From Ignavibacteria bacterium (GTDB lineage Bacteria; Bacteroidota; Ignavibacteria; UBA10030), in NCBI GenBank assembly GCA_016873755.1, contig VGWB01000003.1, positions 1-46,023 on the forward strand: a stretch of DNA of 46,023 nt, given 5' to 3'. The stretch's first letter is position 1; every line of letters begins with the position of its first letter. The position numbers were made by a program, and so were the translations under genes. The notes beneath the pieces are model-generated. The model saw nothing but the letters and a program-made list of their open reading frames with translations. It did not search any database and was not told where the DNA came from. Positions 28,462 to 31,168 of this stretch are shown in pieces.

Positions 28462-28755
28462 TTACTTTTTCGGCATGATGGCGAAGATGTCGCTCTCGCG
28501 CATGATGAGGAGTTCCTCACCGTCGATCGTGACCTCGGTTCCGGAGTACTTGCCGTAGAGCACGCGGTCGCCAACTTTTACTTCCATCGGAATGAGCTTT
28601 CCGTCGTCGGACACCCTTCCCGGTCCGGCAGCGACGACCTCCCCCCATACCGGCTTTTCTTTGGCCGTGTCGGGTACGATGATTCCCCCTTTGGTTTTCT
28701 CTTCGGCCTGCGATGGCTTCACGACAACGCGATCAGCCAATGGCTTGAGAGTCAT
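28462..28755 (-). CDS. groS: Co-chaperonin GroES
   Basis: [30 protein letters not shown]; AAGGAGG ribosome-binding site. Confidence 0.99.
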
Positions 28756-28814: not shown

Positions 28815-28841
28815 TTAGCACTCTGTTGGATTGAGTGCTAA
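28815..28841. promoter_or_regulatory. CIRCE operator (HrcA binding site)
   Basis: Perfect TTAGCACTC-N9-GAGTGCTAA upstream of groES. Confidence 0.97.
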
Positions 28842-28871: not shown

Positions 28872-28911
28872 GAGGGGTCAGGCCAGGTAGAAGTCCAACC
28901 TCTGCACGGAA

Positions 28912-28957
28912 AACCTTCCGAAGGTTCTGTCCGTAGCTCCCTGACCTTCGGAAGATT
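28912..28957. repeat. REP doublet (ACCTTCSGAAGGT family) downstream of rsmI
   Basis: AACCTTCCGAAGGTT 28912-28926 and GACCTTCGGAAGATT 28943-28957. Confidence 0.8.
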
Positions 28958-28989
28958 CAACAAAGAGAAGTCGTCGGACCTCCTACCTG

Positions 28990-30252
28990 CTAGGGGCTTT
29001 TCTGGCCCGCGATGATCAGCACATACTCGCCCCTGGGGGGCTTTCTGGAGAGCTCATTGAGAACGGACGTGACGGGTCCCCTCACGATCTCCTCGAATTT
29101 CTTGGTCAGCTCCCGGGCTACCACGACATGCCGGTCGCCCCAGTAGCTCTGGATCTCAGCCAGTGTCTTGAGAACTCTATGGGGGGATTCGTAGAGGATG
29201 ATCGTCCTCGTCTCGGAACGAAGGGTTTCGAGCTTCGTCTTCCTCCCCTTCTTTTGGGGGAGGAATCCCTCGAAAACGAAGCGATCCGTCGGCAGCCCGC
29301 TGACGACCAAAGCCGAGATGAACGCCGCCGCGCCCGGGATAGGGACAATCGGGATCGAGTGAGAAAGCGCTTCACGTACCAGGTAGAAGGCGGGATCCGA
29401 GATTCCCGGTGTGCCCGCGTCAGAAACCACCGCGATGGACTGCCCCGTCAGGAGTTTCTGGAGCAGCTCAGGCGCGCGCCGCCGCTCATTGTAGCTGTGG
29501 TAGCTCACCATCGGCTTGGTGATACCGTAGTGATCGAGAAGAATCTTCGTTTTGCGTGTGTCCTCGGCTGCGATGAGGTCGACGGAAGAGAGAACCCGCA
29601 CAGCGCGGTAGGTGATATCCTCCAGGTTGCCGATGGGGGTGGCAACGAGATACAAACGACTTTCGGAAGGTCTCGAAGGATCAGCTTGATCCTTCCGAAG
29701 GTTCTCTCTGCTCAGACCTTCGGAAGGCTCTTCAACCCCGTGTGCCAGGGCGAATTGCCGATAATCCTCTCCATCTTTGAAAAAGGTGTTTCTCAGGGTC
29801 AAATCCGTGATCGCAGGTTCTCGTAGCCCACACCAGACGGAGAAATCCGAGAACTCCCAAGCCTCGGGTCTTTCAACCAGATGGGCATTGACGGGATTCA
29901 TGTGGATGTAGCGTATCAGCTGCAATGCGTATTCGTCCGAATGAACACGTTTTGCTTTTGACCTCGCCTCGAAAAGAGTTCCCGAATGCTTCCGCTGGAG
30001 ATTCGCGGCCTGAACAAAAGCGTTGAATACGGTCTGCAAGAACTTCGAGATTGAGCCCTGACGTTCTTGCCTCAACACGAGGTGATAATGGTTCGGCAGG
30101 AAGCAGTAAGCCACTACCCTGACTCCGAGACGAGGGGCGTGCTTTCGGAACAGACTCACAAGGTAGGTGTAATTTGCTGGAGAGAAGAATATCGGGGCCT
30201 TGTGCGCACCACGATTGTATACGTGGTAGTATTCCTCGTCCGCAAATCTCAT
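28990..30252 (-). CDS. rsmI: Fusion of a REP-associated tyrosine transposase (HUH/Y1, about aa 1-170) and 16S rRNA C1402 2'-O-methyltransferase RsmI (aa 199-420)
   Basis: N-terminal YYHVYNRG, YCFLPNHYHL (HUH), YIHMNPV (catalytic Tyr), WEFS; C-terminal LYLVATPIGNLEDIT, AAEDTR, SDAGTPGISDP, YESPHR, ARELTKKFEE, RGE; no stop codon between the domains. Confidence 0.9.
   Translation of the reverse strand: MRFADEEYYHVYNRGAHKAPIFFSPANYTYLVSLFRKHAPRLGVRVVAYCFLPNHYHLVLRQERQGSISKFLQTVFNAFVQAANLQRKHSGTLFEARSKAKRVHSDEYALQLIRYIHMNPVNAHLVERPEAWEFSDFSVWCGLREPAITDLTLRNTFFKDGEDYRQFALAHGVEEPSEGLSRENLRKDQADPSRPSESRLYLVATPIGNLEDITYRAVRVLSSVDLIAAEDTRKTKILLDHYGITKPMVSYHSYNERRRAPELLQKLLTGQSIAVVSDAGTPGISDPAFYLVREALSHSIPIVPIPGAAAFISALVVSGLPTDRFVFEGFLPQKKGRKTKLETLRSETRTIILYESPHRVLKTLAEIQSYWGDRHVVVARELTKKFEEIVRGPVTSVLNELSRKPPRGEYVLIIAGQKSP
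29658..29729. repeat. REP cluster encoding the RAYT-RsmI linker
   Basis: GACTTTCGGAAGGTC 29658-29672, hairpin GAAGGATCA-GCT-TGATCCTTC 29675-29695, TCCTTCCGAAGGTT 29690-29703, GACCTTCGGAAGGCT 29715-29729. Confidence 0.8.
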
Positions 30253-30268
30253 TAGATCTGGCCTTGAT

Positions 30269-30283
30269 AACCTTCAGAAGGTC
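30269..30283. repeat. Single REP copy upstream of the RAYT start
   Basis: AACCTTCAGAAGGTC between the nadE stop and the RAYT ATG. Confidence 0.75.
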
Positions 30284-30286
30284 ATG

Positions 30287-31168
30287 CTAGGTCCCCCAAT
30301 CACGCAGATAGCGGAAATCGACATCAATTGTTCGGTTGGAAACCTTCGCAATGAGCGGCAACCGGCGCTTGAATTGGCTCTTGCGGATGAGCCCCTTCAC
30401 TTTGTCAATAAGCTCCTGCTCGAATCCGAGCGAGACGAGCTCTTGATCGGTCCGGCGCTCGTCAACCAAATGGTAAAGCAGCGAATCAAGGCGGGCGTAC
30501 ACAAGGCCCAACTCGCCTTCATCTGACTGCCCTTCCCAGAGATCTGCGGTAGGTGTCTTCTCGACGATGGACTGCGGCACACCGAGTGCCCGCGCCAGCT
30601 GCCATACCTGCGTTTTGTAAAGGTCACCCAGCGGATTGATCGCGGAAGCCGTGTCGCCGTAGAGCGTCCCGTACCCGACCAACAGTTCCGTCTTGTTGCT
30701 CGTACCGATGACGAGCGCCTGCTCGCGCGCTGAGATGTCGTACAACACAATCATTCTCACGCGCGCCATCACGTTCCCGCGCCGCACGCGATCCGTCACC
30801 TTCCACCGGTCACAATAGGCGTCGACCATCGGGGAGATGTCCACAAGCTCGGACCGTATGCCGAGTCGGTCGATCACCACCTGGGCATCTTTAACGCTTT
30901 GGGGGCTGCTGGTTTTGTAGGGTAGGATAACGCCGAGCGTATTTTCTTTTCCGAGCGCTTCCGAGGCGAGGCAAGCACTTACTGCAGAATCAACGCCCCC
31001 GGAGACACCTACTACGCCCTTCTGAAAACCTGCGCTTTGCGTCTCGTCTCGCACGAACCCGACGAGCAGCTCCTTCACGAGGTCCATATTGAGCTCGAGA
31101 CCCCCGTTTGGATCTTTCGGCACCGATTCCACGTTAGCTCCTGATGCGTTACCGGAATGCGAAATCAC
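30287..31168 (-). CDS. nadE: NH3-dependent NAD+ synthetase
   Basis: GVSGGVDS, GNVMARVRM, GTSNKTE..GYGTLYGD, LYKTQV, PTADLWEGQSDE; start uncertain. Confidence 0.95.
   Translation of the reverse strand: MISHSGNASGANVESVPKDPNGGLELNMDLVKELLVGFVRDETQSAGFQKGVVGVSGGVDSAVSACLASEALGKENTLGVILPYKTSSPQSVKDAQVVIDRLGIRSELVDISPMVDAYCDRWKVTDRVRRGNVMARVRMIVLYDISAREQALVIGTSNKTELLVGYGTLYGDTASAINPLGDLYKTQVWQLARALGVPQSIVEKTPTADLWEGQSDEGELGLVYARLDSLLYHLVDERRTDQELVSLGFEQELIDKVKGLIRKSQFKRRLPLIAKVSNRTIDVDFRYLRDWGT

Follow-up and report, generated by a model that had tools for sequence, protein, structure and literature searches.

A RAYT transposase domain fused to the methyltransferase RsmI in a small freshwater lineage of uncultured Ignavibacteria-like bacteria

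We studied an open reading frame (ORF) of 420 amino acids in an Ignavibacteria bacterium (Bacteroidota; Ignavibacteria; UBA10030; assembly GCA_016873755.1). It lies in positions 1 to 46,023 of contig VGWB01000003.1, and the window means here this whole stretch of 46,023 nucleotides. The ORF is on the minus strand (28990..30252), with its ATG at 30252 and its stop codon at 28990-28992. The predicted product of ~47 kDa is a RAYT::RsmI protein. It consists of a HUH/Y1 domain of the type of the REP-associated tyrosine transposases (RAYT), a linker of ~30 amino acids and a domain of the ribosomal RNA methyltransferase RsmI. REP stands for repetitive extragenic palindrome, the repeat that accompanies RAYT genes. 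The fusion is genuine, and a small freshwater lineage of uncultured, Ignavibacteria-like bacteria has conserved it. From the sequence comparisons given below, we consider it reasonably probable that this fusion has been maintained for a long time, with a RAYT half that is still active on REPs and with RsmI made as the C-terminal half.

RAYTs are already described as domesticated Y1 enzymes of low copy number with REPs on either side, and extra tail domains in some subclasses and in-frame REPs inside genes are known as well. The host benefit of RAYTs, and their persistence as single-copy and vertically inherited genes, are treated as an open question (PMC5581495, PMC3337134, PMC6006769). In the present fusion, a conserved enzyme of ribosome modification is joined to a RAYT with intact catalytic motifs, and the joint consists of the presumed target repeats of that RAYT. 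This could be a natural case where the loss of the RAYT frame is penalised through a host gene. The construct is expressible and assayable for both activities. A RAYT-RsmI fusion is apparently rare and undescribed. The preliminary description of this DNA, made from its letters alone, knew of none, and our full-text literature search, with subscription journals and supplements outside its scope, found no published RAYT or Y1 domain fused to RsmI.

Architecture of the fusion gene

The RAYT-type HUH/Y1 domain covers residues 1-170 (29743..30252, minus strand) and is defined by profile matches, motifs, a structural model and a fold match. Pfam Y1_Tnp (PF01797) matches residues 8-116 with 22.6 bits (cut-off 23), and NCBIfam REP_Tyr_transpos (NF047646) matches residues 6-135 with 62.5 bits (cut-off 80). 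The HUH motif NHYH occupies residues 54-57 (H55 and H57). The tyrosine motif, RYIHMNP, contains Tyr115. Residues 171-199 form the linker (29656..29742, minus strand), recognized by its REP cores and by low model confidence, and they correspond to three translated REP units (PSEG, NLRK and PSES). The RsmI domain comprises residues 200-420 and the stop codon (28990..29655, minus strand) and starts with LYLVATPIGN. It is matched by Pfam TP_methylase (PF00590) at residues 199-396 with 114.5 bits (cut-off 27.8) and by the RsmI equivalog TIGR00096 at residues 200-418 with 261.1 bits (cut-off 167.9). The preliminary description had reported a RAYT-RsmI ORF of 420 amino acids with NHYH and YIHMNP. By ORF, profiles and motifs, its coordinates and description were all correct.

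The fusion in other assemblies and databases

The source genome is a metagenome-assembled genome of 376 contigs (96.9% complete), and REPs are repeats able to mislead assemblers. An assembly chimera, a sequencing frameshift or a gene-calling artefact would then have to be considered. We find this extremely improbable and rule it out, given eight further fusions and four other runs in which no indel interrupts the linker. The Logan contigs from X2, X3 and X5 each span 28900-30330 unbroken, and that of X4 spans 29078-30330. The sole difference among them is C>T at 29446; there are no indels, and the linker agrees base for base. These are lake-water runs of 2018, possibly of one campaign, so they are not fully independent. 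The preliminary description had asked whether reads would reveal a stop, a frameshift or a chimera in the linker. The contigs of the four runs have none of them.

The further fusions come from other data sources, and one of them has full synteny. In a search of 5.8 billion proteins, we found seven full-length fusion clusters besides the window's own (P0002-P0008; 413-458 amino acids; 66-77% identity). Their 31 member sequences were drawn from ENA, JGI and Logan, and they ranked ahead of every unfused RsmI. JGI labels three of the fusion proteins simply as RsmI, and such labels hide the transposase half. The ninth fusion, L029 (419 amino acids), is more distant and was found by scanning JGI metagenome contigs with the RAYT halves. 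Its RAYT half is 55-56% identical to that of the window and its RsmI half 71%. The gene order of L029 is that of the window: aminotransferase, nadE, REP doublet, fusion, groES and groEL. Apart from L029, the scans of metagenome and genome contigs returned only RAYTs with at most 59% identity.

The architecture is far from common, a possibility that the preliminary description had raised, with 8 clusters among 5.8 billion proteins. Likewise, a HMMER search of 1.84 billion representatives gave no match to both halves among the top 150 representatives. None of the 85 other species-representative genomes of the family has a match that spans both halves, and the RsmI matches there all begin at query residue 166 or later. 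For more distant RAYT relatives, we considered loci with at least 900 nt of sequence 3' of the RAYT. An rsmI gene lies downstream in one of 43 metagenome loci (L029) and in one of 73 genome loci (G080, in another frame).

Age and maintenance of the fusion

The fusion is old and maintained at a REP hot spot, and it is not a fresh landing. When the window is compared with L029, the identity at third codon positions is 0.35 and the synonymous sites are saturated. The amino acid identity of this pair is 55% in the RAYT half (dN 0.359) and 71% in the RsmI half (dN 0.235). Since dS is saturated, dN/dS was not computable for the pair by the Nei-Gojobori or LWL85 methods. Averaged over all 36 pairs among the nine fusions, identity is 0.71 in the RAYT half, compared with 0.79 in the RsmI half. 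The RAYT halves of the other fusions are 55-79% identical to that of the window.

A search with a fusion as query is biased towards fusions. As a control of this ascertainment, we searched with the RAYT half alone. Only 8 fusions (the window's own and seven others) were present among the 233 candidates longer than 300 amino acids, and all 101 matches of 94-300 amino acids were at most 58% identical. All seven proteins with at least 61% identity to the RAYT half of the window are fused. In this search, the fused RAYT lineage had no member that was stand-alone, truncated or broken in frame.

The preliminary description had proposed that a RAYT-REP cassette landed at the rsmI start. The REP-derived linker and the genuine fusion agree with this proposal. 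A one-off landing does not hold, because the nine fused members form a monophyletic lineage, the synonymous sites are saturated between the window and L029, the two members compared at the DNA level, and the site is recurrently occupied. Two further ideas of the preliminary description, a route to domestication and the tethering of a nuclease to 30S subunits, are speculative.

The RAYT half

The N-terminal half is a RAYT, or TnpA-REP-type Y1 HUH domain, with intact catalytic motifs. NHYH and RYIH[MTLS]NP are present in nine of nine fusions. Residues H55, H57, Y115, N119 and P120 are invariant in a seven-row alignment of the fusions (P0003 and L029 left out), and H55 and H57 are invariant across 102 RAYT relatives. 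An AlphaFold2 model of this half, built on these 102 relatives, has a pLDDT (predicted local distance difference test) of 96.1. Its best Foldseek match is 4er8_A, the E. coli TnpA-REP with a REP hairpin (E 1.1e-7; template modelling score, TM, 0.68/0.73). The next fold matches are the IS200, IS608 and ISDra2 transposases, with query-based TM (TMq) of 0.47-0.50. By sequence, phmmer gave no match of the RAYT half in PDB at E<=1, and the profile search of PDB gave only E 0.093 to 4er8. The HMMER profile alignment pairs Tyr115 with the tyrosine of YIYINP in 4er8. This tyrosine is the residue changed in the catalytic Y115F control (PMC3479197 / PMC8266576).

Compared with the E. coli REPtron, the window shares the HUH motif and the tyrosine in the Y---NP context, with 4er8 as the best structural match. 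It also shares a gene flanked by a genome-dispersed palindrome, partly in inverted doublets. However, sequence identity is only 18%, the RAYT half is below the NCBIfam cut-off, and the REP of the window is a short hairpin without the GTAG foot. TnpA-REP is described as a stand-alone monomer, auto-inhibited by its C-terminal tail, whose removal raises activity (PMC3479197 / PMC8266576). In the window, on the other hand, that end runs into the REP-encoded linker and RsmI.

The NHYH, WE and YIHxNP motifs and the 60-residue spacing from HUH to Tyr fit class 2, the 'Y---NP' class. So the RAYT half resembles the class 2 TnpA-Y1 of Quentin et al. 2018 in motifs and in HUH-to-Tyr distance (PMC6006769). 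That work describes subclass-specific extra domains and REPs in frame inside tnpA-REP and other genes. In the window, the partner is no small tail domain but an entire housekeeping enzyme. Quentin et al. dropped a few proteins of unexpected length as gene fusions or annotation errors, and the word 'methyltransferase' is absent from their main text (PMC6006769).

This genome carries two RAYT copies of the window clade, the fused one, which is intact, and a frameshifted one. The second copy (G000:C31:7248-7749; locus L121, 2150-2776) is 52-53% identical and is frameshifted after ~24 codons. No exact REP cores occur within ~2 kb of it, and it is probably a decaying copy. Some relatives' genomes carry 3-5 RAYT copies.

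REP palindromes and the linker

With at most one mismatch, we counted 7 copies of the core CCTTCSGAAGG in the window. The mean of 100 shuffles was 1.18, and none of them reached 7. Six of the seven cores are at the fusion ORF (30271, 29717, 29691, 29660, 28914 and 28945). One of them, CCTTCAGAAGG (30271..30281), has one mismatch and lies in the 34 nt that separate the nadE stop from the fusion ATG. L029 has a full REP doublet at this site. Three cores are in the linker. The first is exact (29717..29727), the second is exact and in the opposite orientation (29691..29701), and the third has one mismatch (29660..29670). Directly 3' of the fusion stop there is a degenerate compound REPIN (28887..28982), in which an outer palindrome of the AGAAGTC..GACTTCT type encloses the inverted REP doublet 28914/28945.

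Exact cores number 57 genome-wide, against at most 9 for each of nine control palindromes of the same composition. This count is the third highest among the 86 family genomes. If one mismatch is tolerated, the number rises to 194 cores, among them 26 inverted doublets with a spacing of 29-34 nt. The REP unit reads AA-CCTTCCGAAGG-T(T), with a stem of 6-7 bp and a loop of 3 nt, and the candidate hairpin substrate is AACCTTCCGAAGGTT. Some doublets are nested in a compound element of ~100 nt with an outer palindrome, AGAAGTCSGACTTCT, on each side. C147:8346-8447 and C65:13325-13426 are examples of such two-tier hairpin elements.

The same core lies beside stand-alone RAYTs. G037 has doublets on both sides, G061 has three copies upstream and four downstream, G084 has a doublet upstream and G080 one copy per side. 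The RAYT-REP association is therefore real and family-wide, since the same core flanks stand-alone relatives in other genera.

The linkers of all nine fusions are chains of PSEG-like and NLRK-like units, 25-66 amino acids long and all in frame. PSEG and NLRK correspond to two of the three reading frames of the palindrome, all of which are free of stop codons. Exact 11-nt cores persist in the linkers of the window and L029 despite the saturated synonymous sites nearby. In the full-length model, pLDDT is 92-99 for the RAYT domain, 44-70 for the linker (about residues 171-200) and 61-97 for the RsmI domain. REP arrays appear here as an evolvable protein linker, of 2-6 units and always in frame.

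Translation of the RsmI half

The RsmI part has no ATG of its own, and the preliminary description had named a TTG at 29655 without a visible Shine-Dalgarno sequence as the only fallback. Reading the codons confirmed both points. TTG 29655-29653 (Leu200) is the only in-frame ATG, GTG or TTG between the RAYT domain and LYLVATPIGN. Upstream of it there is only a weak purine run, GAAAG. The REP palindrome that had been placed just before LYLVATPIG is also there, as the third linker core, 5 nt upstream of the TTG.

RsmI could come mainly from internal initiation at this TTG, the RAYT being a read-through or minor product, so that both functions would in effect be separate. We regard this as unlikely. 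The TTG falls exactly at the first residue of the RsmI domain, as this explanation would expect, and unfused relatives start rsmI just 4-25 codons upstream of the LYLVATPIGN motif. Likewise, the linker RNA folds stably (-42.6 kcal/mol, z -2.8, with 2 of 200 shuffles as good) and could slow upstream ribosomes. Nevertheless, the L029 linker has no in-frame ATG, GTG or TTG, and its codon equivalent to Leu200 is CTT. So, in L029, RsmI could be made only as a fusion. In the window, nothing Shine-Dalgarno-like precedes the TTG, compared with AAGGAGG at groES. The 101 matches of similar length include no out-of-frame or stop-bearing RAYT of the fused lineage, and the linkers vary in length yet stay in frame in nine of nine.

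The GC content at third codon positions (GC3) was considered as a sign of separate translation and discarded. The RAYT has a lower GC3 than rsmI in the unfused G084 and G080 too.

The nadE-rsmI site in relatives

The gene nadE (30287..31168, minus strand) is the conserved upstream neighbour and marks the insertion site. It is directly upstream of rsmI in 24 of 26 loci of relatives. The gap between the nadE and rsmI matches measures 27-182 nt when empty and 669-742 nt when a RAYT is present. The preliminary description had suggested looking for an empty site in relatives. G083, of the same genus, has it, with an rsmI that has its own start. In G084, of the same genus, and in G080, of another, the site holds a separate RAYT ORF that ends in its own stop, and rsmI follows with its own ATG. 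G074 has REP cores at the site and no RAYT, and G073 has an unrelated ORF of ~187 amino acids in the gap (L116, about 770-1333). It seems that small genes in general can land in the nadE-rsmI gap.

A quick maximum-likelihood tree of 95 RAYT sequences groups the nine fused halves in a single clade, with a support of 91 in the Shimodaira-Hasegawa-like approximate likelihood ratio test (SH-aLRT). The RAYTs of G084 and G080 form another (95). This tree excludes the frameshifted C31 copy and all high-scoring segment pairs that cover fewer than about 140 residues of the query. The RsmI tree, a quick search of 146 rows without the frameshifted G081 and with poorly supported deep nodes, places the fused forms in three groups that agree with the RAYT tree, and unfused genes are nested among them. 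The RsmI half of the fused P0005 is 97.7% identical to the RsmI of the unfused G084, whose RAYT is ~52% identical to that of the window. The last REP-derived unit before GTLYLV is similar in L013 (the G084 locus) and P0005. This pattern suggests a cassette exchange by recombination within the REP array. In our reading, there may have been a single old fusion, then lost in some lines or replaced there as a cassette by way of the flanking REP arrays.

At locus L113 (G081:C36), rsmI is split over two frames, which hold RsmI-half residues 4-104 and 93-223, with a REP core just upstream. It is either a frameshift or an assembly error.

The RsmI half

In its equivalog score, its TP_methylase fold and its N-terminal TPIGN, this half is like the known RsmI, the 16S rRNA C1402 2'-O-methyltransferase (PMC12407886, PMC5053481). 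Compared with E. coli RsmI, it differs in bearing 199 residues of RAYT and linker at the N-terminus, in having no start codon of its own and in lacking the helix-turn-helix (HTH) domain. The half is short, since it covers positions 2-223 of the 275 of TIGR00096, and a Pfam search gave no match to the C-terminal HTH domain (PF23016, RsmI_C). The unfused RsmIs of the family (P0009-P0120; 231-263 amino acids) are likewise short and without this domain. A 2025 cryo-EM study presents it as essential for 30S recognition by E. coli RsmI, which acts as a dimer on the 30S subunit (PMC12407886).

The lack of this domain would suit a co-option of the RAYT half as a hairpin-binding or structural N-terminal module of RsmI. 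Such a module might aid, for example, in finding the rRNA substrate, with no action on the repeats. The RAYT half also evolves just slightly faster than RsmI. However, the HUH and Tyr residues are invariant in nine of nine fusions and are not needed for a purely structural role. Unfused family members manage without a RAYT domain, and the REPtron arrangement of flanking REPs has been retained. We think that co-option of this kind is improbable.

Other N-terminal RsmI fusions are GIY-YIG::RsmI (P0320) and class-I methyltransferase::RsmI (P0283), whose partner families are unrelated to RAYT. With a GIY-YIG nuclease domain on the RsmI N-terminus, N-terminal RsmI partners occur elsewhere too. An RsmI::NUDIX architecture is also in the databases (P0288). 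In P0309, an RsmI with ~180 extra N-terminal residues, a hidden Y1 domain was rejected (hhalign probability 0.1%). For a Y1 domain on RsmH, which modifies the same C1402 as RsmI, we found no confirmation. The RsmH ORFs had at most 369 amino acids in the 100 of 101 sampled genomes with a match, drawn from the phylum to which a MAG labelled Lentisphaeria belongs, and 320 amino acids in the genome of the window.

Proposed model of the fusion

The long-maintained, REP-active fusion that we prefer could have arisen as follows. A REPtron, that is, a RAYT gene flanked by REP hairpins, would first have occupied the space from nadE to rsmI. One lineage would have lost both the stop codon of the RAYT and the start of rsmI, and the 3' REP array would then be translated as a flexible linker of variable length. 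RsmI would be made as the C-terminal half of the ~47-kDa RAYT::RsmI. The RAYT half would still be a working REP-binding and REP-cutting HUH enzyme, serving the ~200 genomic REP cores. Retained catalysis is suggested by the HUH and Tyr residues, invariant in nine of nine fusions, by the lack of any other intact RAYT of this clade in the genome and by a core count that is the third highest. The RsmI half would still methylate 16S rRNA. The RAYT would gain a steady, low expression at housekeeping level. The fusion may persist because this RsmI would be lost as well with any nonsense mutation or frameshift that hits the RAYT half or the linker.

Several observations weigh against this account. First, the RAYT half is under both curated cut-offs (22.6 vs 23 and 62.5 vs 80 bits). 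The stand-alone RAYT of G084 is also below that of NF047646 (64.4 bits). Since stand-alone relatives fall short too, it is the whole RAYT clade that lies outside the curated model, and the half in the window is not to be seen as a degraded copy. Second, the 57 cores have no GT[AG]G foot at a fixed position, and nothing is conserved outside AA-core-T. GT[AG]G occurs within 20 nt of 14 of the 57 cores (background 9%), at variable places. Atypical REPs are described for some subclasses by Quentin et al. (PMC6006769). With a short REP and no fixed foot, cleavage of the cognate REP is extrapolated from the enzymes of E. coli, Stenotrophomonas and Marinomonas. Third, REP abundance tracks RAYT presence only loosely across the 86 family genomes, which as related genomes are not independent. 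The median of exact cores is 12 in the 40 genomes that have a RAYT match at E<=1e-30. In the other 46 genomes it is 6, and three of these hold 30-40 cores.

On the side of RsmI, the in-frame TTG at Leu200 of the window and the family-wide lack of the C-terminal domain that is essential in E. coli count in the same direction. The genome also has a second RsmI-like gene (G000:C12:20573-21244; locus L122), ~45% identical and of ~224 amino acids. A second match of ~45% identity recurs across the family genomes. Since this gene passes TIGR00096 with 208.5 bits, the 'hostage' logic is perhaps weak. The preliminary description had made RsmI production dependent on translating the transposase. That claim gains from L029, without an in-frame start, and loses from the second gene, which passes the equivalog cut-off. 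Finally, the fusion appears dispensable or reversible, as the RsmI pair of G084 and P0005 (97.7%) and the 85 of 85 unfused other species representatives indicate.

Alternatively, the fusion might couple the two activities. A dimeric RsmI would make the RAYT two-headed for inverted REP doublets. The inhibitory tail would be replaced by a tether to an enzyme that binds the 30S subunit, and REP processing would be tied to ribosome biogenesis or growth state. The idea comes from the fact that the tether to a dimeric enzyme begins at the C-terminal end of the RAYT. We give this coupling a small chance.

Neighbouring genes

Downstream of the fusion, groES (28462..28755, minus strand) is the conserved neighbour. 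It is preceded by a minus-strand sigma-70-like promoter, TTGACA-17-TATATT (11 of 12 positions match; 28871-28843). Just downstream of this promoter is a perfect inverted repeat, TTAGCACTC-N9-GAGTGCTAA (28815-28841), which we take to be a CIRCE operator (controlling inverted repeat of chaperone expression). With this promoter and operator ahead of it, groES-groEL would be regulated independently, in a heat-shock-type manner, rather than merely being transcribed together with the fusion.

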